NCBI GenBank assembly: GCA_023266195.1
Contig: JAHFRP010000002.1
Location: 154,779 to 218,778 of the forward strand
DNA from: Sulfuricella sp.
GTDB taxonomy: Bacteria; Pseudomonadota; Gammaproteobacteria; Burkholderiales; Sulfuricellaceae
DNA: 64,000 nucleotides
Reading direction: 5' to 3'
Position 1 is the first letter of the stretch. Each line of letters begins with the position of its first letter. A model generated the notes under the pieces. The model was not told the origin of the DNA and did no database searches. It was given only the letters and a program-made list of their open reading frames with translations. Both the position numbers and the translations under genes were made by a program. Shown here piece by piece: positions 26,101-37,628 of the stretch.

Positions 26101-27165
26101 GCCGTGAAAAGCGCATTCCAGAGCGCCGGCCTGGGCGCCGAACTGCGCGTGATCGGCACGCTGAACGCGGACGACCGCCTCGCCATCCGGCGCGCCGGCA
26201 CGGAAGTGTTCGGCCATTCCCGCATCGAACTGCAACGCGCCTGGTCAGAAACCACCAGCCGGATGCAGGCGCTGCGCGACAACCCGCAATGCGCCGCGCA
26301 GGAATACGACCGCATCCTGGACGGCGGCGATCCCGGACTGCATGCCGCACTCGGCTTCGACCTGAACGACGACGTCGCTGCCCCGTATATCGCCAGCGGC
26401 AAACGCCCGCGCATGGCGATCCTGCGCGAGCAGGGCGTCAACGGCCAGGTGGAAATGGCCGCCGCCTTCGACCGCGCCGGCTTCGACGCGGTGGACGTGC
26501 ACATGAGCGACATCATCGAAGGCCGCGTCGCGCTCAGGGATTTCCGCGGCTTTGCTGCCTGCGGCGGCTTCTCGTTCGGCGACGTGCTGGGCGCGGGCGA
26601 GGGCTGGGCCAAATCCATCCTGTTCAACAGCCGCGCCCGCGACGAGTTCGAGGCGTTCTTCCGGCGCAGCGACACCTTCGCCCTGGGCGTGTGCAACGGC
26701 TGCCAGATGATGAGCAACCTGTACTCCATCATCCCCGGCGCGGAAAACTGGGCGCATTTCGTGCGCAACAAATCGGAGCAGTTCGAAGCGCGCTTCGTCA
26801 TGGTGGAAGTGCCGCAAAGCCCGTCGCTGTTCCTCGACGGCATGGCCGGCAGCCGCATGCCCATCGTCGTGGCGCACGGCGAAGGCTACGCCGAATTCCG
26901 CAGCCCCGAGCAGATGCAGGCCGCCCAGGTGGCGCTGCGTTTCGTCGACAACCGCGGCAACCCGACCGAAACCTATCCGTCCAACTCCAACGGCTCGGCC
27001 CAGGGCATCACCGGCCTGACCACGCCGGACGGCCGCTTCACCATCATGATGCCGCACCCGGAACGCGTGTTCCGCGCGGTGCAGCACTCATGGCATCCGG
27101 AGGGTTGGGGCGAAGACGGGCCGTGGATGCGGATGTTCAGGAATGCGAGGAAGTGGGTGGGGTAG
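23155..27165 (+). CDS. purL: Phosphoribosylformylglycinamidine synthase (large type)
   Basis: 1336 aa; [39 protein letters not shown]. Confidence 0.98.
24234..24325 (+). repeat. CCCTCTCCC/GGGAGAGGG palindromic element in frame within purL
   Basis: ccctctccccaaccctctccc (24234-24254) pairs with gggagaggggg (24315-24325) around an inner hairpin agcggc-ggcaaa-gccgct. Confidence 0.75.
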
Positions 27166-27440
27166 GACAGGGGGCGGCTTTGACAAGAACGCCGATTATG
27201 GATGTCGTTAAAGCAGCCCTGTCGGTTGCGCCGGAAGTTCTCGGGAACATCTGTTACTTTAGCGTAAAACTCGCGAAGCGAGACCTCGTCCCCCTCGCCC
27301 ATCTCGCCGAGGTCGTTGCGTAGCAGCGGGAACCCGGCGGGGATACTCCTCGCGGGTGCTTGCGGGAGAGGGCCGGTCATGGCGAATCCCCGTTTCATGA
27401 TTCGGGGCGGCGATTCGCCATGACCGTTAGCCTTATATGA

Positions 27441-27900
27441 TCATCGCTCCTGGCACGCCTTGCTGACGGCGCCCCGGGATTGTTGAACATCCATGAATGG
27501 ATCGGTGATAGCGGCTTCTCCTGTATCGGGGCGCAGCATAAAATTGGCGCCATGAATATCCAGATCCACCAATGGCGATTTTTCCTCCAGAAAGCTAGCC
27601 AGTAATACAAATGCCTGTCCAAGATCATCTTCAGGCTGGGCATTGATGGTGTTTTTTTGCCTTGTTAGTGAAGATAACGGTCCACCGGAAGGCCGCGTCT
27701 GCCTGGCAATAGAAAGACAGCGTTTCCGGGCATCGGAGCCCGATTTCAGTTTTTCCAGCCGCTCCATTTCAATCGGGAACAATGACAAGTCGTAGTCGCT
27801 CGCGCCTACGGTGCCATGAAGGCCGTGGATCGCCGGGCATTGCCACCGAGATTGTCGTTCCGCCAGCGCCCCCCGGCCGGGGGTCTTCCTTGGTAGGCTA
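27441..27900 (-). pseudogene. Protein-kinase-like remnant
   Basis: GRGAL, IEMERLEKL, LDIHGANFMLR (DxHxxN-type catalytic loop) and ITDP; too little sequence between GRGAL and the hinge to hold the beta3-Lys/alphaC region; 5' boundary approximate. Confidence 0.45.
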
Positions 27901-27912
27901 GTCGAAAAACCA

Positions 27913-27942
27913 TTGACAATTTTATGATTGTCCATCCATACT
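27913..27942 (+). promoter_or_regulatory. Putative sigma70 promoter
   Basis: TTGACA (27913-27918), 18-nt spacer, CATACT (27937-27942); spacer region holds the palindrome GACAAT-N6-ATTGTC. Confidence 0.4.
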
Positions 27943-27943
27943 A

Positions 27944-27963
27944 TATTCAAATGGTCGTTTGAT
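27944..27963. promoter_or_regulatory. Putative operator TATTCAAATGnTCnnTTGAT (site 1)
   Basis: 17/20 identical to 28439-28458; TCAA-N8-TTGA dyad; directly after the putative -10. Confidence 0.5.
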
Positions 27964-28067
27964 CGTTTGTTTTGTGATGCCATCCAGCCATTCTATGCGG
28001 TATTGCATTACCAAGTGGAGACACACGCCCACGCCTCAATCCGGCGCAGGTCTTTTGCAAGGAGGCA

Positions 28068-28421
28068 ATGATGAAAACCCTGTTTATTCTCAACGATCCG
28101 CCCTACGGCACCGAGCGCAGCTACAACGGCTTTCGCCTGGCGCGCGCCCTGTCCAAGCACGAGGGCAACGAAATCAGGATTTTTCTGCTGAGTGACGCCG
28201 CCCTATGTGCCAAGGCCGGGCAGAAAGTGCCCGAGGGCTATTACAACATCGAATTCTTCGCCCAGAGCGTGCTCAAGCGCGGCGGGGAGATCGGCGTATG
28301 CGGCATGTGCATGGATGCGCGCGGGCTGCGGGAAGAGGAATTGATTCCCGGCGCCCGGCATTCCACGCTGGAGCATCTGGCGGAGTGGACCGAATGGGCG
28401 GACAAGGTACTGGTGTTTTGA
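28068..28421 (+). CDS. DsrE/DsrF-like (YchN-type) protein
   Basis: ILNDPPYGTERSYNGFRLA, DAALCA, CGMCMDARG, WADKVLVF; AGGAGG RBS. Confidence 0.9.
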   Translation: MMKTLFILNDPPYGTERSYNGFRLARALSKHEGNEIRIFLLSDAALCAKAGQKVPEGYYNIEFFAQSVLKRGGEIGVCGMCMDARGLREEELIPGARHSTLEHLAEWTEWADKVLVF

Positions 28422-28438
28422 CGGCTTTTTTTGTTCAT

Positions 28439-28458
28439 TATTCAAATGTTCAATTGAT
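28439..28458. promoter_or_regulatory. Putative operator TATTCAAATGnTCnnTTGAT (site 2)
   Basis: In the AT-rich 63-bp gap before the TauE gene; 17/20 identical to site 1. Confidence 0.5.
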
Positions 28459-28484
28459 AGTTGTAATTTTTTAGGTAAACCCAA

Positions 28485-29279
28485 ATGATTCTTCTCGCCA
28501 TGCTCTCCGGTGCCGCGACCGGCATCGTGCTCGGGCTGCTCGGCAGCGGCGGCTCCATTATCGCCGTGCCGGCGCTCCTGTACCTGCTGCACGTGGAGCC
28601 GAAACAGGCCATTGCCATGAGCCTGGGTATCGTCGCCATCACCGCCACTATCGCGGCTTGGGACAACTGGCGGCGGGGCAATGTGGATATCGGAGTGGCT
28701 GCGGTGTTCGGCCTGTTCGGGGCGGCCGGCACCTTCGGTGGAACGCGGCTGGGCGTGCATACGCCGGTCACGTTTCAGCTCGGGTTGTTCGCCCTGGTGA
28801 TGCTAGCCGCTGCCTGGAGGATGCTGAAAACCAAAAAACAGCCCGTTGTGCAGGCGGCGCAACTGGCCGTGGCGGGCGGCCCTGCCGTTTCGTTCGCCGA
28901 AACCGGAAAACTCAAGGGGCGTATGGGCCAGATCGCCCTGCTCGGCATCGGCGTCGGTGCGCTAACCGGACTGGTCGGCGTGGGCGGCGGCTTTCTGATC
29001 GTGCCGGCGCTGGTGCTGCTGTCCGGCATCCCGATGAAAATCGCCGTCGGCACCTCGCTCGCCATCGTCGCGGCCAACGCGTCCACCGGCTTCGCCGGCT
29101 ACCTGGGCGCGGTGCCGGTGGACTGGACGATGATGGCGTCCTTTACCGCAGTGACGGTGGCCGGCAGCTTTGCCGGCACGCGCCTGGCCCACCGCTTCTC
29201 GCAGGAAACATTGAAGCGCAGCTTCGGGGTGTTTCTGATTTTCGTCGCGACCTACATCATGATCAAGAGCGTGGCCTGA
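28485..29279 (+). CDS. TauE/SafE-family sulfite/sulfur-compound exporter
   Basis: 264 aa, about 8 TM; duplicated [10 protein letters not shown] / [10 protein letters not shown] motifs; AVGTSLAI. Confidence 0.9.
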
Positions 29280-29306
29280 CAAAAAAGCGGTTTTAAGGAG
29301 ACCGGG

Positions 29307-29705
29307 ATGAAAAAATTGTTTGTTCTGCTGCTTTTTTCCATAAACGCGATAGCCGAACCATCGCCGGGCGACGTCGGAGAATACATCCATGCGATGCATG
29401 GCTTGGTCCAGGCGGAGCGGGTGGTGATCAAAACTGGAAACGGTTCGGACCAGAGCGACGTCGGGCTGCTGATTCCGTCAAAAGAAATATTCTTCACCTC
29501 GACCGAATTAACACAAGGCGGCAGGCTGGCATTGGAAAAAGCCAGCCGTTTTGCCAAGGGGGCAAACAAAAAACTGACCGTTCTTGTGCCCGACGAACGA
29601 GAGAACAAGGACTTTCGACCGCTCGCTTACTCGATGCACGGCGTGCGGGTCAAGCGCAACGCCTTCATCGGCCAAAATGTTTTCATCGTGATCGCCAGTA
29701 ATTAG
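29307..29705 (+). CDS. Hypothetical exported protein
   Basis: 132 aa; signal-peptide-like MKKLFVLLLFSINAIA; GGAG RBS; no family recognised. Confidence 0.6.
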   Translation: MKKLFVLLLFSINAIAEPSPGDVGEYIHAMHGLVQAERVVIKTGNGSDQSDVGLLIPSKEIFFTSTELTQGGRLALEKASRFAKGANKKLTVLVPDERENKDFRPLAYSMHGVRVKRNAFIGQNVFIVIASN

Positions 29706-29808
29706 CGAGGCAATCGGCCCTATGCCGCAAATCGCGCCGAAGAACCACTGTAGAGTGCGCCGTGCGCACCACGCATAATCAATGGGTTGCATGATGTTTC
29801 TTGAGAGG
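29701..29808. repeat. Composite REP-cored miniature element, family B (copy 2, one arm)
   Basis: 29712-29771 = reverse complement of 18334-18393 (58/60); 29780-29808 = reverse complement of 18268-18296 (28/29). Confidence 0.85.
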
Positions 29809-29832
29809 TTGGCACGGGTTCGTCCAGACGCC

Positions 29833-29882
29833 CTTGTTTTTCCTCTGTGAACTCTGTGTTCTCCGTGGCTAAATGCTTTTTC
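29833..29882. repeat. CTCTGTG nonamer-periodic repeat, half copy
   Basis: 48/50 identical to 49082-49131. Confidence 0.85.
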
Positions 29883-29900
29883 CAGAATATAAGGAGCACC

Positions 29901-30221
29901 ATGCCCGAACCGATCAAAGTATTGTCCCAGCATCCGCCCGGCGGGCGATGCATGCTTTACGTGCGTTATGCCGAGGAATTATCATCCAGCCTGGGCCTGG
30001 CAAAGCGCGTTATCCACACCGATTGCCGCGACGCGCACGGCGAGGGGTTCCCCGCCATGTGGGTGAATGGGGTGGCGCTGCAACCATCCGACGGCGTGAT
30101 CCTGTCGCCCGAAGACATCCATGCCGGCCTCGCGACTATCGGGGTGGACCCGAGCGCCGCGCCGGACCTGCTCGCGCGGCTGGAAGCCATTCTGGAACAT
30201 TTTCTCGAGGGGGTTGAATGA
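29901..30221 (+). CDS. Hypothetical 106-aa protein, possible thioredoxin-like fold
   Basis: AAGGAG RBS before ATG 29901; PPGGRC, FPAMWVNG, DGVILSPEDI; stop overlaps next start. Confidence 0.75.
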   Translation: MPEPIKVLSQHPPGGRCMLYVRYAEELSSSLGLAKRVIHTDCRDAHGEGFPAMWVNGVALQPSDGVILSPEDIHAGLATIGVDPSAAPDLLARLEAILEHFLEGVE

Positions 30222-31387
30222 ACGACAAGAACAAGGGCCTTGCCACCCGCTGCATCCATGCAGGCGAAATCAAGGATGCCCATGGCTCGCCGCATACGCC
30301 GGTTTATACCAGCACCACCTTCAAGTTCGACTCCACCGCCGACCTGCTCGACGTGGTGGACGGCAAAAAGCCGGGCAGCCTCTATACGCGCTACGGCCTC
30401 AACCCCACCCTGTTCAGCCTGGAAGAAAAGCTCGCCGCGCTGGAAGGCGCGGAGGCGGCCTGGGCGTTTTCCTCGGGCATGGCTGCGGAAGCCGCGCTGT
30501 TTTTCGCTCATGGGCGCAAGGGCGTGGTCTGCATCGGCGACGCCTACGGCGGCACCATGGAGTTCCTCGCCAGCCAATTGCCCGAGCTCGGCATCCCCAC
30601 TCATTTTCTCCTCGGCAGCGAGCTCGATGGGTTGAAGACCTTTCTGGAAACGGGCGCCAGCCTGGTGTTTTTCGAGACGCCGACCAACCCGACGCTGGAA
30701 GTGCTGGATATCCGCAAAATCAGCGATGCGGCCCACGAATACGGCGCTCTGGTGGCGGTGGACAACACCTTCGCCTCGCCGGTGAACCAGAATCCGCTGG
30801 CGCTCGGCGCGGATTTCGTCGTCCACAGCGCCACCAAGTATCTCGGCGGCCACAGCGACATTACCGCTGGTGCCTTGATGGGGCCGAAGGAGCTGCTGGC
30901 GCCGGTGTGGAACTGGCGCAAGAACCTGGGCGCCATGATCGCGCCGGAGACCGCATCGCTGCTGGCGCGCAGCCTGCGCACCCTGGTCGTGCGGGTGGAG
31001 CGGCAGAACGCCACGGCTCAGATCGTGGCCGAGGCGATGGCTGGGCATCCGGGCGTGGCGCGGGTGTTTTATCCCGGCCTGGCCGATTTCCCCGGCCATG
31101 CCGTGGCCAAGTCGCAGATGCACGGCTTCGGCGGCATGCTGACGCTGGAAGTCAAGGGTGCATACGAGGATGCGGTGCGGATGGTGGACAAACTCAGGCT
31201 GTTCGCCATCGCGCCCAGCCTGGGCGGGGTGGAAAGCCTGGTTACCATGCCGGTGACCACTACCCATCACGGATTGGCGCCGGATGAGCGCGCGCGGCGC
31301 GGCATCTCCGACACCATGGTCCGGCTCTCCATCGGTCTGGAGGACGCCGCCGACCTGATCGCCGATCTGGGGCAGGCGCTCGGTTGA
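30218..31387 (+). CDS. Cys/Met metabolism PLP-dependent lyase (cystathionine/methionine gamma-lyase family)
   Basis: YTRYGLNPT, FSSGMAA, ETPTNP, VDNTFASP, HSATKYLGGHSD (PLP Lys), SLGGVESL, VRLSIGLED. Confidence 0.93.
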   Translation: MNDKNKGLATRCIHAGEIKDAHGSPHTPVYTSTTFKFDSTADLLDVVDGKKPGSLYTRYGLNPTLFSLEEKLAALEGAEAAWAFSSGMAAEAALFFAHGRKGVVCIGDAYGGTMEFLASQLPELGIPTHFLLGSELDGLKTFLETGASLVFFETPTNPTLEVLDIRKISDAAHEYGALVAVDNTFASPVNQNPLALGADFVVHSATKYLGGHSDITAGALMGPKELLAPVWNWRKNLGAMIAPETASLLARSLRTLVVRVERQNATAQIVAEAMAGHPGVARVFYPGLADFPGHAVAKSQMHGFGGMLTLEVKGAYEDAVRMVDKLRLFAIAPSLGGVESLVTMPVTTTHHGLAPDERARRGISDTMVRLSIGLEDAADLIADLGQALG

Positions 31388-31508
31388 GGCAAACGAAACA
31401 CGATGGAGCGCTGAAATAGAACAGGAGCTCAATACGTCGCAGGCATGCCAACCGTAGTCAGTTTCTTGTTCTACAATGAAGAATGATAGCTGACCTCGGG
31501 ATGAAGCC

Positions 31509-33542
31509 ATGCCGCGCGACCTTCCTATCGGCAACGGTACGTTGCTGGCCGCTTTCGATTTCGATTACCAGATTCGCGATTTCTACTATCCCCGCGTCGG
31601 CAAGGAGAACCATGCGCTGGGCTATCCGTGGCGGTTCGGCGTGTGGCTGGAAGGGGAGTTTTCCTGGCTCGGCCGCGGGAGCTGGGCGCTTCACCGGGAC
31701 TATATCGCCGACACGCTGGTGACCTCGGTCAGCGCGACCCATCCTCGTTTCCCGCTGCGCCTCTATTTCAACGACGCCGTCGATTACGAGAAAAATATCC
31801 TGGTGCGGCGCGTGCGAGTGCAGAACCTGTCAACCCGCACGCTGGCGCCGCGCATTTTCTTCCACACCGATCTCAACGCGATGGAAAACGAGATCGGCGA
31901 CACGGTGTTTTTCGACCCCAAGAATGCCTGCCTGATCCATTACAAGGGCCCGCGCTATTTCCTGACGAGCTGCGCCACGGAAGCCACGCTCGGCGTCACC
32001 CATTTCGCCACCGGCACCAAGCGCAACCGCGGCCTGGAGGGCACCTGGCGCGACGCCGAGGACGGCGAACTGGGCGGCAATCCGATTTCCCAGGGCGCGG
32101 TGGATTCGGTCATCGGCATTCATCTTTCGATCGATGCCGGGCAGGAAACGGTTTGCCACTACTGGATGGCGGTGGGGGAAAACTATCGCGAGGTGGAGGA
32201 ACTGCATCGCCTGGCGATCCAGCTCGGGCCGGATCGCCTGATCGAGCGCAATACCGATTACTGGCGCCGCTGGATACTCGCCGGGGAAAAGGATTTTTAC
32301 GGGCTGCCGCCGCTGCTGGCCGAGCGCTACAGGCGCAGCCTGCTGGTGCTGCGCACCCAGATCGACCGGGGCGGGGCGGTGATCGCGGCCAACGACACCG
32401 ATATCCGCCAGTTCAACCAGGACACTTACAGCTACATGTGGCCGCGCGACGGCGCGGTAGTGTCGCAGGCGCTGGATCGCGCCGGTTATGGCGGGCTGAG
32501 CCAGCGGTTTCTGGAATTTTGTGCGCAAAAAGCGGTCAACTACAATTATTCGGCCAGTATCCTGGCCGAGACCGGTTTTCTCATGCACAAGTACAATCCA
32601 GACGGTTCGGTCGGCAGTTCCTGGCAGCCCTGGCTGCAGGGCGAGGAAATGGTTTTTCCCATCCAGGAGGACGAGACGGCCCTGGTGATTTGGGCCATCT
32701 GGAACCATTACCTCGTTCATCGCGATATTGAGGCGATCCGGCCGCTTTACAGTCCTTTTGTCGAGCGCGCCGCCGATTTCCTGATGGACTTCCGCAGCGA
32801 CAAGACTGGATTGCCGCTGCCGTCCTACGACCTTTGGGAAGAGCGGCGGGGCGTATTCACCTACACCACGGCCACCGTGATTGCCGGCCTGAAAGCCGCT
32901 GCCGGCCTGGCGACACTGTTTCAGGATGCACGCGCAGAAGCCTATCTGGCCGGCGCACTGGAAGTGCGCGAGGCGCTCGACCGCCATCTCTACTGCCAGC
33001 GCGACGGCCGTTTTGCCCGCGGCATCCTGTTCGACGATGGGCTGCAAATCCGCGATTCCACGGTCGATGCCAGCCTGCTCGGCCTGGTCGTTTTCGGCGG
33101 CTACGATCCGCTCGACGAACGCATGGCCAGAACCGCGCAGGCGGTCGAGGAGCGGCTGTGGGTCAAGGTCGGCAGCGGCGGAGTGGCGCGCTACGAAGGC
33201 GACAGCTACCAGCGGGCGATGGAGAGCGCGGGCGCGCCGGGGAACCCCTGGGTGATTTGCACGCTTTGGCTCGCCCAATACCGTATCGCGGCGGCGGGCA
33301 GCCGCAAGTCCCTGGAGGACGTCATCCCCCTGCTGGCTTGGGCCGCCGAACGCGCGCTGCCGTCCGGGATATTGCCGGAACAGGTGCATCCCGTCACCGG
33401 CGAGTTCCTTTCCGTGTCGCCCCTGACCTGGAGCCACGCAACGCTGGTGGCCGCCATGCTGGATTATGCGGAGAAGGCCAAGGCGATGAGGCGCCGCAGC
33501 GACATTCCGGACCTCGCATTTTCCGGTAGGGATAGGAGGTAA
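31509..33542 (+). CDS. Glycoside hydrolase family 15 (glucoamylase-like)
   Basis: 677 aa; YMWPRDG, DLWEE (catalytic acid), LPEQV (catalytic base), SPLTWSHA. Confidence 0.92.
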   Translation: MPRDLPIGNGTLLAAFDFDYQIRDFYYPRVGKENHALGYPWRFGVWLEGEFSWLGRGSWALHRDYIADTLVTSVSATHPRFPLRLYFNDAVDYEKNILVRRVRVQNLSTRTLAPRIFFHTDLNAMENEIGDTVFFDPKNACLIHYKGPRYFLTSCATEATLGVTHFATGTKRNRGLEGTWRDAEDGELGGNPISQGAVDSVIGIHLSIDAGQETVCHYWMAVGENYREVEELHRLAIQLGPDRLIERNTDYWRRWILAGEKDFYGLPPLLAERYRRSLLVLRTQIDRGGAVIAANDTDIRQFNQDTYSYMWPRDGAVVSQALDRAGYGGLSQRFLEFCAQKAVNYNYSASILAETGFLMHKYNPDGSVGSSWQPWLQGEEMVFPIQEDETALVIWAIWNHYLVHRDIEAIRPLYSPFVERAADFLMDFRSDKTGLPLPSYDLWEERRGVFTYTTATVIAGLKAAAGLATLFQDARAEAYLAGALEVREALDRHLYCQRDGRFARGILFDDGLQIRDSTVDASLLGLVVFGGYDPLDERMARTAQAVEERLWVKVGSGGVARYEGDSYQRAMESAGAPGNPWVICTLWLAQYRIAAAGSRKSLEDVIPLLAWAAERALPSGILPEQVHPVTGEFLSVSPLTWSHATLVAAMLDYAEKAKAMRRRSDIPDLAFSGRDRR

Positions 33543-33547
33543 CGGTC

Positions 33548-34804
33548 ATGGAAGAGCAGGGCTACGGCGAAGTAATCCCACCGCTTTTCGACGACGCATC
33601 GCGTAGCCAGCGGCTGGCTTTTCTGGGTTTCGAGGCGCGGGACGCCGAACTTCTGCACGACCTTGAAGAACTGTTTCGCGAGCGGCGGGCCGAGATCGCC
33701 GAGCTGTTCTATCAACACCTGCTCGCCTTCGAGGATACCCGCCAGGTGTTCAAGGACGAGGCCATGGTCTCCCGCCTCAAGGAGGCGCAGAAAGCCTATC
33801 TGATGCAGGCGCTGGCCGGGCCCTACGACGCCGCCTATTTCACGCGGCGCTGGCGCATCGGCTTCATCCACAACGTCGTCCGGGTGGAGCCGCACTGGTT
33901 CATCGGCGCGTTCCAGCTTTACCACCGCATCCTCTACCCGATGATCCTGGCGCGCTATTCGGCCGACGCGGCGGCGGTAGTGGACCACATTCTCGCCCTG
34001 GACAAGATCATGAATCTGGACATGCAGCTGGGCATCCAGAGCTACATGGTTCATTACTCCGCCGCCATGGACAAGCTGCAGGCGCTCAACAGCCAGATCG
34101 AGGCCGCCAGCGCGGCGAAAAGCCAGTTCCTGGCCAACATGTCCCACGAATTCAGGACGCCGCTCAACGCCATCATCGGCTTCACCGAAGTGCTTCAAGA
34201 CCAGCTTCCCGGGCCGCTCAACGCCGACCAGCTCGAATACCTGGGCGACATCCACAACGCCGGCCAGCTTCTGCTGCGCCTGATCAACGACGTGCTGGAT
34301 CTCGCCAAGGTGGAGGCGGGCCGTCTGGAGCTTTTCTACGAGACGGTGCCCATCGCGCAGACCATCCGCGAGACCATCACCACCTTGCGCGGCGCGGCGG
34401 AAAAGAAGGGGCTTACGATTCAATGGGACATCCCGCCCGATCTGGGCCTGATCAACGTCGACCAGATCCGTTTCAAGCAGATATTGTTCAACTTGCTGTC
34501 CAACGCGGTGAAGTTCACCGACCACGGTGGCGTGACCGTCACCGGCGCGATCGAAGGAGATCGGTTGCATGTGACGGTGGCCGACACCGGCATCGGCCTG
34601 CACCCGGAAGACATGGACCGGATTTTCGTCGAATTCAGCCAGGTCGATGCTTCCTATACCCGGCGCCATGAAGGAACCGGGCTGGGGCTGGCGCTTTCCA
34701 AACGACTGGTGGAAGCGCACAAGGGAAAAATCTGGGTGGAAAGTCAATTCGGTGCGGGCAGCACTTTCCATGTGCTGCTGCCGCGGCAGCCGATAACTTC
34801 TTGA
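33548..34804 (+). CDS. Globin-coupled sensor histidine kinase
   Basis: Sensor globin (ELFY, RIGFIH proximal His); SHEFRTPLNAI, NLLSNAVKFT, DTGIG, GTGLGL. Confidence 0.92.
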   Translation: MEEQGYGEVIPPLFDDASRSQRLAFLGFEARDAELLHDLEELFRERRAEIAELFYQHLLAFEDTRQVFKDEAMVSRLKEAQKAYLMQALAGPYDAAYFTRRWRIGFIHNVVRVEPHWFIGAFQLYHRILYPMILARYSADAAAVVDHILALDKIMNLDMQLGIQSYMVHYSAAMDKLQALNSQIEAASAAKSQFLANMSHEFRTPLNAIIGFTEVLQDQLPGPLNADQLEYLGDIHNAGQLLLRLINDVLDLAKVEAGRLELFYETVPIAQTIRETITTLRGAAEKKGLTIQWDIPPDLGLINVDQIRFKQILFNLLSNAVKFTDHGGVTVTGAIEGDRLHVTVADTGIGLHPEDMDRIFVEFSQVDASYTRRHEGTGLGLALSKRLVEAHKGKIWVESQFGAGSTFHVLLPRQPITS

Positions 34805-34807
34805 TTG

Positions 34808-34878
34808 TGAATTTTGAATTCAAAAGACGCCGCGTAGCGGCATCGCCATTCAAAATTCAAAACCAGGAATTCAAAATT
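34808..34878. repeat. Heptamer-periodic inverted repeat (ATTCAAA)
   Basis: tgaattttgaatt ... attcaaaattcaaaaccaggaattcaaaatt around an inner gccgc-gta-gcggc hairpin. Confidence 0.7.
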
Positions 34879-34916
34879 TGCTTTTTCCAGCTAGAAGCCA
34901 TCAACGAGGACTGAAA

Positions 34917-35747
34917 ATGACGGATGCGTCAAACGACCCTCAGAACGGCAGCGGACTCTGCCCGGACCAAGGCAGAGCCATCCTGGTGGTGGAGGACAAC
35001 CCGCAGGCGGCAAAACTCCTGTCGCTCTATTTGTCCCAGGCCGGCTACCGCGTGACGATAGCCGGGAGCGGCGCCCAGGCACTGGCGCTGGCCGGCCGAT
35101 GCCGCCCGACCGCAATTACGCTGGATTTGCTGCTGCCCGATATGGACGGCTGGGACGTGCTGGCGCAATTGAAGGCGACACCCGGTACGCAGGACGTCCC
35201 CGTCGTGATCATCTCCGTGTTGGACCGCCAGTCGCTGGGGTTCGAGCTGGGCGCGTCGGATTATCTGGTCAAACCGGTTGGGCGGAGCGAACTGCTCCGG
35301 GCGCTGGAGCGTTGCATGCCGCGGGACGAGGGTGTTTGCCGTAAGGTAATGGTGGTCCATACCGACCTCGACAAGTTGAACCTCCTGGCGATGGTGGTCG
35401 CGCAGGAGAGTTATGAAGTCGTTCTGGCATTGGGCGCCGACAAAGCGGCCTGGCTGGCCAAACACGTCCACCCCGATTTGGTGGTCACCGACTTGTTGGC
35501 CGGCGGGATGGACTGCTATGCATTGTTGGAGGGATTGCGAGCTGAACCGGAAACCGCACATGTTCCAGTTTTGGCATTGACCACCGGAATAGGCCATCCC
35601 GAAGGAAGCGGGGAGGGAGGCGACATTGAGTTTGTCCTGGTGCGGGACAATGAGCTGATTGAAGAAAGGCTGCTGGCGACTATTACTAGGCTATTCAAAC
35701 GGGGCAAGCTGGTCGCGGACGGAAAAAATAATGGAAGAACAACCTAA
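34917..35747 (+). CDS. Response regulator with tandem receiver domains
   Basis: REC1 LVVEDN...TLDLLLPDMDG...LVKPV; degenerate REC2; start at ATG 34917. Confidence 0.87.
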   Translation: MTDASNDPQNGSGLCPDQGRAILVVEDNPQAAKLLSLYLSQAGYRVTIAGSGAQALALAGRCRPTAITLDLLLPDMDGWDVLAQLKATPGTQDVPVVIISVLDRQSLGFELGASDYLVKPVGRSELLRALERCMPRDEGVCRKVMVVHTDLDKLNLLAMVVAQESYEVVLALGADKAAWLAKHVHPDLVVTDLLAGGMDCYALLEGLRAEPETAHVPVLALTTGIGHPEGSGEGGDIEFVLVRDNELIEERLLATITRLFKRGKLVADGKNNGRTT

Positions 35748-36126
35748 AACCATCCTGCTGGTCGAGGATGACCACGCCAACCGCAAGCTGATCCGCGTCA
35801 TCCTGGGCAAGCACTATCGCATCCAGGAGGCCGAAAGCGTCGAACAGGCTCTGGATTTGCTAAGGAACAGGAAGCCGGATTTGCTCCTGCTCGACATCCG
35901 CCTGGGGAGCGGCAGCGGACTGGACATCATCCGCGCGGTGCGGGAAAACGCCGAGCTCGATGCGGTTCCGGCTGTGGCGATCACGGCGCAAGCCATGAAA
36001 AACGACGAAAGCCGGTTCCTGGCGGCGGGTTTCGACGGCTACGTGAGCAAACCGATCGACACCCGGCTGTTGCCCGAGGTGGTGGAGCGTTTTCTCCGCG
36101 GCGGCAGGAGGGCGGGACATGCCTGA
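35731..36126 (+). CDS. Single-domain response regulator (DivK-like)
   Basis: LLVEDD, LLLDIRL, AITAQAM, GFDGYVSKPID; start at ATG 35731. Confidence 0.9.
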   Translation: MEEQPKTILLVEDDHANRKLIRVILGKHYRIQEAESVEQALDLLRNRKPDLLLLDIRLGSGSGLDIIRAVRENAELDAVPAVAITAQAMKNDESRFLAAGFDGYVSKPIDTRLLPEVVERFLRGGRRAGHA

Positions 36127-36820
36127 GGAACTGGCGACGATCCTGGTGGTGGACGACACGCCGCCCAACGTCAAGCTGCTGCGCCTGATCCTGAACGATG
36201 CCGGCTACCGGGTGCTGGAGGCGGCCAACGGCCCGGAGGCATTGGCGACGCTGCGCAGGGAGAAACCCGACGCCATGGTGCTGGACGTGCGCATGCCGGG
36301 AATGACAGGCTACGAAGTATGCAACGAAATCAGGCGTGATCCTGAATTCGCCATTCTGCCGGTGATCATGGTCACCGCCTTGTCCCTGCCGGAAGAACGC
36401 ATCAGGGGCATCGAAGCTGGTGCAACCGATTTCATCAGCAAGCCGTTCAACAAAAGAGAATTGCTGGCCCGGATCCAGGCCAGTCTGGCCTTGGCAAAAA
36501 ACGGCAGGAGCGGCATCGTTCCCCGGTTGCCGGGCGCGGTCGTGATCACCGATCCACTATGGAAAACGCTGGGCATGTCGCCGCTGGCCACGACTCTTCT
36601 GGGCATTCCGGCGCCAGGCGTGCAGGAATTCGACTTCAGCCAATTGTTCGGCGCGGACGAGAATCCCCTGGCTGCGGGCACCGGCGGCGATGCGCCTGTC
36701 GATTTCGTCCTGCATGCCCCGGCCACCCAAGCCACTCTGGATGCCCGCCAGGTCGCCATCACGGATCCGGCCGGGAAACTCGTCATGCGACTGATCACGC
36801 TGAGCGAGGCGGCGAGATGA
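36119..36820 (+). CDS. Response regulator with C-terminal PAS-like domain
   Basis: LVVDD, VLDVRMPGMTG, DFISKPF; C-terminal GAVVITD...ITDPAG has a PAS-like pattern. Confidence 0.82.
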   Translation: MPEELATILVVDDTPPNVKLLRLILNDAGYRVLEAANGPEALATLRREKPDAMVLDVRMPGMTGYEVCNEIRRDPEFAILPVIMVTALSLPEERIRGIEAGATDFISKPFNKRELLARIQASLALAKNGRSGIVPRLPGAVVITDPLWKTLGMSPLATTLLGIPAPGVQEFDFSQLFGADENPLAAGTGGDAPVDFVLHAPATQATLDARQVAITDPAGKLVMRLITLSEAAR

Positions 36821-36913: not shown

Positions 36914-37628
36914 ATGGACACCAGCAAAGCGGTAACGAAGCAAATCCACGCGGCGTTCGAGCGGGAAGCCCGCATCGGCCTGCACCATCACCCCATCGCC
37001 ATGGCTTTCGATAACGGCGTTCTGACGCTGGAAGGGGACGTGGCGGACATCGCCGCGAAGAAACTCGCCCTCGAACTCGGCGGCGCGGCGCATGGCGTCA
37101 GAGGCGTGGTGAACCGGTTGCGGGTGATTCCCGCCGAACGCAGGGGCGACGGCGATATCCGTGTCGCTGTCGGGAACTTTTTGTTGCAGGAACCCGCACT
37201 GAGCAATGTCGGCTTGCGGGCCTGGTACAAGGGGAGAGAGGAAAAACTGAGGGAAGCGGACTCCGGCGTGATCGAACCTGGCGGTGGAAGACGGGATCAT
37301 CACCCTGGATGGAGAAGTGATCAGTCTCTCTCACAAGCGTCTGACCGGCGCGTTGGCTTGGTGGACACCCGGCTGCCGCGATGTGATCAACGGCCTCGAA
37401 GTGGTGCCGCCCGAAGAAGACAGCGATGGCGAAGTCGTCGACGCCGTACGCCTGGTGCTGGAAAAAGACCCCCTCGTTCACGCCGAGCAGATCCGCGTCA
37501 GCGCTCAGGACTACGTGGTCACCCTGGAAGGGCTGGTAGGCACCACGGACGAACGCAAAATGGCCGAACTCGACGCCTGGTACGTTTTTGCGGTGAACAA
37601 GGTGATCAACAGGCTGGAAGTGGCTTGA
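36914..37628 (+). pseudogene. Three-BON-domain protein split by a 1-nt insertion
   Basis: BON motifs (LTLEGDV..VVNRLRV; ITLDGEV..VINGLEV; VTLEGLV..VINRLEV) continue across a frame change at GAACCTG (37274-37280). Confidence 0.85.

Follow-up and report, generated by a model that had tools for sequence, protein, structure and literature searches.

The window, a stretch of 64,000 nucleotides (nt) from a Sulfuricella sp. genome (contig JAHFRP010000002.1, positions 154,779 to 218,778), contains a locus of five co-oriented genes within 28068..31387, flanked by purL on one side and by a GH15 gene on the other. An initial annotation had described these genes as a candidate module for the generation, carriage and export of persulfides. 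All five open reading frames (ORFs) were found where it had placed them, and its family assignments were matched by Pfam for DsrE (PF02635), TauE/SafE (PF01925) and the Cys/Met family of pyridoxal phosphate (PLP) enzymes (PF01053). The other two proteins, given there as an exported unknown and a small Cys protein, are indeed without a Pfam match; a signal-peptide-like start was read by eye in the first, and the second, of 106 amino acids (aa), has two cysteines. The features of the locus are:

27913..27942, + strand: sigma-70-type promoter candidate (TTGACA, 18 nt, CATACT), the best of 2 promoter-like sites in 27000-32000
27943..27966, no strand: predicted operator 1, an imperfect palindrome directly after the -10 box, matrix score 24.4
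28068..28421, + strand: ychN-like gene of the DsrE family, Cys78-x-x-Cys81 (E 2e-25), start probably at 28071
28438..28461, no strand: predicted operator 2, 47 nt before tauE and at the same position in relatives, matrix score 30.0
28485..29279, + strand: tauE, TauE/SafE-family membrane protein (E 4e-50)
29307..29705, + strand: accessory exported protein (C), 132 aa, no cysteine
29901..30221, + strand: protein D, predicted thioredoxin/glutaredoxin fold, PPGxRC motif, Cys17, Pro51
30218..31387, + strand: PLP-dependent lyase of the Cys/Met family, from a distinct clade whose distal pocket is rebuilt (E 7e-122)

The five genes are a truncated remnant of a conserved modular cluster, which is led by a repressor made of an ArsR DNA-binding domain fused to a rhodanese. 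In genome G001, the gene order is pyrG-kdsA-eno-ftsB-ArsR-rhodanese-ychN-tauE-C-D-lyase, followed by a class II amidotransferase, a NifS-like protein, an unknown exported protein, TlpA and GH15. The source genome contains the same pieces at 81-93% DNA identity, with the repressor remaining behind ftsB (C34:72079-72738), 110 kb from ychN, although this separation may be an assembly error. In the closest relative examined, the repressor lies directly upstream. Compared with G001, approximately 3.9 kb are absent after the lyase, and four downstream genes have been deleted. Queries with the amidotransferase, the cluster-type NifS, the dioxygenase and the MFS transporter gave no match in the source genome (100% complete), where only distant dioxygenase and SQR homologues are present. 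The initial annotation had overlooked the operators, the repressor at its remote position and the partners lost by deletion. Its module stands as a conserved sulfur-handling unit, but not as a self-contained pathway, the amidotransferase, NifS-like, dioxygenase and MFS partners being lost from this copy.

At 27215-27435 and 29700-29860 lie short intergenic repeats that are dispersed through the genome in dozens of copies, the first stretch with a 19-nt inverted repeat at 27374-27426. The rearrangement itself could be taken to indicate a decaying, effectively unregulated remnant whose genes have no joint function. The operon is cut from its repressor, an IS21 helper fragment lies after the latter, dispersed repeats are found at the other junction, and the deletion of the four downstream genes points the same way. 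Such decay is nevertheless highly improbable, as all five frames are intact and the codon differences from G001 are mostly silent (25 vs 4 in ychN, 81 vs 27 in the lyase gene). Moreover, three operator sites and the repressor cysteines are kept.

Conservation of the cluster was determined in 20 neighbourhoods of relatives, chosen by the presence of the 106-aa protein D, and in the best 80 of 547 loci found in a wider lyase scan (61-89% identity, several phyla); the members of these sets are kin and overlap between sets. The 20 neighbourhoods contain tauE and the lyase gene in every case, the amidotransferase in 16, ychN in 15, the NifS-like gene in 14, dioxygenase-like and MFS genes in 7 each, and C in 4. 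Among the 80 lyase loci, a full-length repressor is present in 33, YchN in 31, the NifS-like protein in 30, TauE in 20, D in 17, the amidotransferase in 16, an SQR-like protein in 14 and the dioxygenase-like protein in 10, while methyltransferases occur in 26. The dioxygenase-like gene encodes a metallo-beta-lactamase fold and, like the SQR-like gene, scores under the model cut-offs. At least one of six partners (ychN, tauE, NifS-like, SQR-like, dioxygenase-like, repressor) accompanies the lyase in 54/80 loci, compared to 0/20 in a control set of loci of other Cys/Met lyases, which yielded one rhodanese domain and one partial methyltransferase match. The exact five-gene set is rare (4/20 neighbourhoods and 2/80 lyase loci). 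The genes thus do co-occur in relatives and in the wider loci, beyond what chance would give and as a functional module would demand.

Around a core of repressor, ychN and tauE, the cluster has optional modules: D-lyase-amidotransferase-NifS, dioxygenase-MFS, the SQR-like gene, the methyltransferases and a periplasmic molybdoenzyme block. Plasmids of Streptomyces mirabilis and Paracoccus versutus also bear this set of genes. An extended cluster was observed downstream of the repressor in G021, G033, G009 and G013 (L130 8885-14999, L131, L128 and L129), encoding an exported rhodanese, an exported PPGxRC paralog, a small exported protein, TlpA and a tandem rhodanese, along with an ABC operon of the type II DMSO-reductase family. 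At L028 2252-5538, L127 3066-6352 and L128 9546-12805, selA and selB are located between the molybdoenzyme operon and tlpA-ychN, with no in-frame TGA in the neighbouring genes tested. An MMPL/RND transporter and a LolA-like protein also recur beside the lyase cluster at unrelated loci (L060, L102, L109, L050 and L134).

The promoter candidate counts for little by itself, since 1.7 sites are expected by chance in 27000-32000 and the scan is thus at chance level. More is gained from the palindromes. A 19-base motif is directly repeated before ychN and tauE, and these two are its only exact matches in the genome. Sites of relatives yield the palindromic consensus ATTCAA-N8-TTGAAT, and a matrix built from 23 distinct sites of relatives, run over the 3.1-Mb genome, places the tauE, ychN and repressor sites at ranks 1, 3 and 4. 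Because the window sites seeded the pattern, fairer tests are provided by the site of the repressor gene and by loci beyond the closest group. For 26 full-length repressors outside the 11 closest loci, the best upstream site beats all 200 shuffles in 19 cases, and in 4 more it is matched by at most three shuffles. These shared predicted operators point to co-regulation, which the annotated module required. The position of operator 1, abutting the -10 box, resembles that of the BigR site, which covers the -10 region according to the available part of its description (PMC5823870).

Exact contigs from two metatranscriptome runs of one study begin at 27949, seven bases past the -10 box; one contig spans ychN into tauE and another D into the lyase gene. 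They are not counted as support, as starts and single transcripts are not resolvable in such contigs, DNA was possibly present and the study is itself possibly the source. On the opposite strand, a 180-aa ORF without Pfam match (27441-27983) is divergent from ychN; its one 50% homologue among 60 relatives adjoins selA in G012.

The repressor contains only two cysteines, both in the rhodanese loop CRGPYC. These residues, Cys178 and Cys183, are invariant in 41/41 repressors, with no other conserved cysteine. It is present in 35/37 family genomes. In 10 family genomes without the lyase, ychN (8) and tauE (7) are still found beside the repressor, and this persistence identifies repressor-ychN-tauE as a stable core. 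In G025 (L141 3233-10153), the repressor is followed by a three-subunit molybdoenzyme, presumably SoeABC-like, and by a rhodanese, TusA and DsrE2, and the matrix gave no operator site at this locus.

As an ArsR relative, the repressor could respond to arsenite-thiol chemistry, the cluster then aiding arsenic methylation or arsenosugar synthesis. This explanation is very unlikely. Arsenite sensors carry cysteines in the ArsR domain, whereas this ArsR domain is devoid of any conserved cysteine, and arsC, arsB and acr3 were not seen among the annotated recurring neighbours. An ArsS radical SAM protein and both arsenosugar glycosyltransferases do flank the repressor in G049, but these genes are rare in the lyase loci (2/80, with ArsM-like proteins in 5/80) and absent at the source locus. 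DsrE/F-like genes have also been described to change under arsenite in Thioalkalivibrio, in the part of that work at hand (PMC6620896). At L147 9019-13838, L057 166-6691 and L101, genes for the ArsS radical SAM protein, the TIGR04282 and TIGR04283 glycosyltransferases and ArsM-like proteins lie next to the ArsR-rhodanese regulator or next to the lyase cluster.

For the ychN-like gene, the second ATG, at 28071, is favoured as the start because of its ribosome site and because homologues are 116 aa long. The only solved relative of its product is E. coli YchN (1jx7, E 4e-21). Across the aligned cluster homologues, Cys78 is conserved in 48/48 and Cys81 in 47/48, and the protein is a probable sulfane-sulfur carrier. 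It differs from the canonical DsrE/TusD of DsrEFH systems, scoring 24.6 bits against a model cut-off of 89 and having no dsrF or dsrH partner; the source genome encodes a canonical dsrE adjoining dsrAB on another contig. TauE is a probable exporter of sulfite or thiosulfate. The exported protein C returned five matches in a homologue search, itself included. An Atlas structure search gave TM scores of 0.57-0.66 to OmpA/MotB-type models, under the bar for naming, so that a predicted OmpA-C/MotB-like fold is only a lead. The sulfur role implied for this protein by its inclusion in the module finds little in its favour, given the lack of cysteines and its presence in just those four neighbourhoods.

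Protein D belongs, judging from its predicted structure, to an unannotated family of one-cysteine thioredoxin-fold proteins tied to the lyase clade. Only Cys17 of its two cysteines is invariant among relatives, which have in common the PPGxRC motif and a later proline. None of 42 aligned family members matches Pfam, and the family profile matches 87 representatives at 50% identity. The structural model (predicted local distance difference test, pLDDT, 86) places Cys17 near the start of helix 1. Comparison with known folds resulted in modest scores (best Z 5.9, root-mean-square deviation 3.4, 76 aligned residues; Foldseek E 0.02), and thioredoxin-fold entries constitute nearly all of the top 50 rows. 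Glutaredoxin, thioredoxin and SelW-like small proteins share the predicted beta-alpha-beta fold, the cysteine at the start of helix 1 and the conserved proline, but D differs from them by its single cysteine (GGRC) and the missing Pfam match.

The tie to the lyase is visible at several levels. D is matched in 22/61 genomes, all 22 of which contain the lyase clade, and a class-wide search found it in 2/400 scored genomes, source genome included, indicating rarity outside the family within that sample. Its stop codon overlaps the start of the lyase gene, and a single additional base joins the two in frame in G005 and G012. The fused junction is also found in G017, together with an earlier stop; the naming of D as cystathionine gamma-synthase by some sources probably stems from this fusion. 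A complex prediction for D and the lyase scored 0.00, which carries no weight either way. Further D paralogs are encoded in the same clusters, namely a second cytoplasmic one and a third with a signal-peptide-like start. Among the loci examined, the three types are confined to this cluster type.

The lyase clearly belongs to PF01053 (407 bits, cut-off 27), but of the 60 NCBIfam models matched, the 25 shown all have cut-offs that it does not reach. It reaches 383 of 600 bits (PRK08249) and 310 of 505 bits (TIGR02080) for the cystathionine enzyme models, and 377 of 550 bits for methionine gamma-lyase (TIGR01328). With cystathionine gamma-synthase and lyase (MetB, CSE) and methionine gamma-lyase it has in common the fold family and the PLP residues: Lys207, Tyr56, Arg58, Tyr110, Asp182 and Arg369 are kept, and Lys207 and the PLP residues are invariant in the clade. 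The distal pocket, in contrast, is different. In the alignment with E. coli MetB (38% identity), Arg106, Asn227 and Glu325 are replaced by Glu115, Lys235 and Pro333, while Cys116 and Asp241 of the P. putida methionine lyase correspond to Gly112 and Lys235. We take Arg106 and Glu325 to be the distal residues that hold cystathionine, and Cys116 and Asp241 (P. putida numbering) to be diagnostic of methionine gamma-lyase. The replacements are typical of the clade (Glu115 in 59/61, Pro333 in 56/61, and Gly112, Arg234 and Lys235 in 61/61). Such an altered pocket suggests a substrate different from the canonical ones, and we would guess at a cystine-like or sulfonated cysteine compound. The pocket arguments come from alignments only, the single-sequence model of the lyase being unusable (pLDDT 38).

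The spread of the clade (E at most 1e-140) is patchy, with 25/37 family genomes and 1/24 others, beside intact MetZ and MetY. A housekeeping role was rejected: MetZ and MetY pass the NCBIfam cut-offs elsewhere in the genome, where they cover methionine synthesis, and 12/37 family genomes are without the clade in that search. The concern that this lyase might be the sole Met/Cys enzyme is thereby removed. From a quick tree only, with two outgroups on very long branches, no direction of transfer was drawn. On the Acidithiobacillus caldus SM-1 megaplasmid (L041 11162-13170), an 85% identical lyase was observed alone behind a short ArsR gene in a metal-resistance region.

A lyase followed by a desulfurase could also serve to break down cysteine, cystine or glutathione in a feed-forward manner, much as the initial annotation had it. 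The amidotransferase would remove glutamate, the lyase and desulfurase would make sulfide or persulfide on purpose, and YchN, the dioxygenase and TauE would carry, oxidise and export the sulfur or feed it into sulfur oxidation. In most family loci, the class II amidotransferase (16/20) and the NifS-like protein (14/20) are indeed neighbours of the lyase. The canonical substrates are, however, made doubtful by the change of MetB Arg106/Glu325 to Glu115/Pro333 and of methionine lyase Cys116/Asp241 to Gly112/Lys235, with the roles presumed above. A persulfide source under derepression by persulfide would moreover constitute a positive loop, and the repressor-ychN-tauE core persists without the lyase. 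In favour of this scheme, the accessible portions of two studies indicate that the yrk cluster confers protection from cysteine stress (PMC9918477) and that CSE-type enzymes are known sources of sulfide and sulfane sulfur (PMC13467558). Taken together, deliberate production of this kind is rather improbable.

A further explanation, and a serious rival, is the detoxification of selenium or tellurium; seleno-compounds had already been named by the initial annotation. The rhodanese would then sense protein-bound selenium, the lyase and NifS-like protein would strip selenocyst(e)ine- or selenomethionine-type compounds, the methyltransferases would volatilise the product, and the optional periplasmic type II molybdoenzyme would reduce selenate. 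Six methyltransferases served as queries (among them TehB-like, ArsM-like and three class I types without assignment), and 26/80 lyase loci are matched by one or more of them, as opposed to one partial match in 20 controls; a type II DMSO-reductase-family operon is found inside the extended cluster in several family genomes, as is selA-selB in G007, G009 and G015. Enzymes of this kind handle selenium. This explanation is nevertheless less likely than a response to sulfane sulfur: SelA was not found in the source genome, none of these modules is present in its operon, and selA lies near 0/80 of the wider lyase loci. For the NifS-like protein, cysteine desulfurases rank ahead of selenocysteine lyases (SclA score 122, cut-off 525), and the score of the TehB-like protein falls far short of the TehB cut-off. 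Selenocysteine read-through was rejected, as no in-frame TGA was found at cysteine positions of the cluster genes in 3418 alignments.

Beyond the locus, a protoglobin-domain histidine kinase and three response-regulator-like genes, read from the sequence, follow directly past the GH15 gene (33548-36820). Two consecutive BON-domain ORFs in different frames (36914-37628) are possibly one broken gene. No RNA family or tRNA was matched at the locus; the sole matches in the window are a tRNA-Ser and a signal recognition particle RNA near 60.5 kb.

We favour, with a probability of roughly 0.55, the interpretation that the locus is the remaining half of a sulfane-sulfur-inducible clean-up regulon of a sulfur-oxidising betaproteobacterium. 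All steps beyond gene identity, linkage and motif conservation are ones that we infer. The repressor would bind the palindromes in trans and block the promoter, until modification of its rhodanese cysteines by persulfide or polysulfide releases it. YchN would accept sulfane sulfur on Cys78/81, and TauE would export the oxidised end product, sulfite or thiosulfate. The lyase would cleave a sulfur-modified cysteine compound (cystine, cysteine per- or polysulfide and S-sulfocysteine are candidates) rather than cystathionine or methionine, with the PPGxRC protein serving it as a one-cysteine reductant or sulfur acceptor. In the fuller copies, the amidotransferase, NifS-like desulfurase, dioxygenase-like and SQR-like proteins and methyltransferases may complete the clean-up, several of these having been lost in the source genome. 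Experimentally studied analogues, which include DsrE, TauE, rhodanese, dioxygenase and SQR, respond to sulfane sulfur, as stated in the parts of these reports at hand (PMC9918477, PMC7533328, PMC5823870). Persulfide generation, which the initial annotation had seen as a purpose of the genes, is less in agreement with the gene set and the regulator; by analogy with cst, yrk and bigR, these resemble removal more.

Several observations weigh against a clean-up regulon. The release of sulfur by a lyase and a desulfurase is odd within a removal system. The methyltransferases (26/80 loci) and the type II molybdoenzyme fit selenium at least as well. With the cluster-type dioxygenase, amidotransferase, MFS and NifS-like genes absent, the route to the end product is incomplete here. 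Among the wider loci, 26/80 are free of partners, several with full flanks such as those of Methyloversatilis, and the lyase can thus stand alone. The loci being related and overlapping, their counts show linkage and not independent events. As for the operators, the ranks of the two window sites are partly circular, since both seeded the motif; the second-ranked site of the genome is AT-rich and precedes an unrelated gene, and 3/26 of the outside repressor genes have no site upstream. The fold match of D, finally, reaches only Z 5.9.

The cluster offers three testable unknowns to the study of how microbes handle sulfur and selenium. The first is a repressor with a defined operator, whose sensing may depend on a fused rhodanese and not on a cysteine pair of its own. 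The second is a widespread clade of Cys/Met lyases, labelled cystathionine gamma-synthase by databases, while its pocket argues otherwise, and the third is a small thioredoxin-fold family without annotation. The YchN family, long without an assigned role, would gain a regulatory context. A bolder and doubtful extension is that the full regulon is an undescribed route, present in several phyla, which removes sulfur or selenium from damaged derivatives of cysteine and glutathione. It would combine the rhodanese-sensing repressor, the dedicated lyase with its charge-swapped pocket, a new family of one-cysteine thioredoxins in cytoplasm and periplasm, several methyltransferases recruited independently and the optional periplasmic type II molybdoenzyme, and would achieve complete reduction, salvage and volatilisation of selenium oxyanions. 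A literature search, covering part of the literature and main texts only, found no work that describes this cluster, its fused regulator, the clade of the lyase or the PPGxRC family.

Among known systems, the Bacillus licheniformis yrkD-yrkEFHIJ-ydfQ-nreBC-sqr-pdo cluster and the Staphylococcus aureus cst cluster are close to the present type. Each is an inducible unit in which a head repressor with two promoters is joined by a DsrE-type carrier, TauE, rhodanese, a thioredoxin-like protein, dioxygenase and SQR, and which protects against sulfane sulfur and cysteine (PMC9918477, available part). The carrier part is shared, with a YchN-like DsrE protein and TauE in the window and the rhodanese in the regulator and in the fuller copies. 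The yrk/cst repressor, in contrast, is of the CsoR type (CstR/YrkD), a type to which the ArsR-rhodanese fusion does not belong, and the same part of that source lists no Cys/Met lyase, NifS-like protein, amidotransferase or methyltransferase (PMC9918477). Dioxygenase and SQR-like genes are missing from the source copy, and their putative counterparts, which score under the model cut-offs, occur in 10/80 and 14/80 of the lyase loci. The Streptomyces coelicolor ScCsoR-PDO-TauE-rhodanese circuit is similar as an autoregulated removal of sulfane sulfur by dioxygenase, rhodanese and TauE, but it has a repressor of another family and, in the accessible text, no lyase or thioredoxin-fold partner (PMC7533328). 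The Streptomyces mirabilis plasmid carries a separate cluster of the present type.

The class of the BigR operon (Xylella/Agrobacterium), SqrR, YgaV, HlyU and SoxR resembles the present cluster by an ArsR repressor over the -10 region, a TauE-type exporter, a sulfur transferase and a dioxygenase. Its members sense by two cysteines of the ArsR domain (PMC5823870, PMC9774590, PMC10054925, as far as the available parts describe them), whereas here that domain has none and the pair is located in the fused rhodanese. The repressor reaches only 52 bits with the BigR model (cut-off 155). Operators at the repressor's own and at target promoters, another feature of this class, have their counterpart in the predicted palindromes before the repressor, ychN and tauE. 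In the main text of the ArsR network paper, rhodaneses appear only as neighbours of persulfide sensors (PMC10054925). The cluster would thus work like yrk, cst, ScCsoR and bigR without being a member of these systems, as its repressor is neither of the CsoR nor of the BigR/SqrR type and no lyase module is listed in the parts of these sources at hand (PMC9918477, PMC7533328, PMC5823870, PMC9774590, PMC13467558). Its overall logic of repressor, carrier, dioxygenase and TauE is already known from them.

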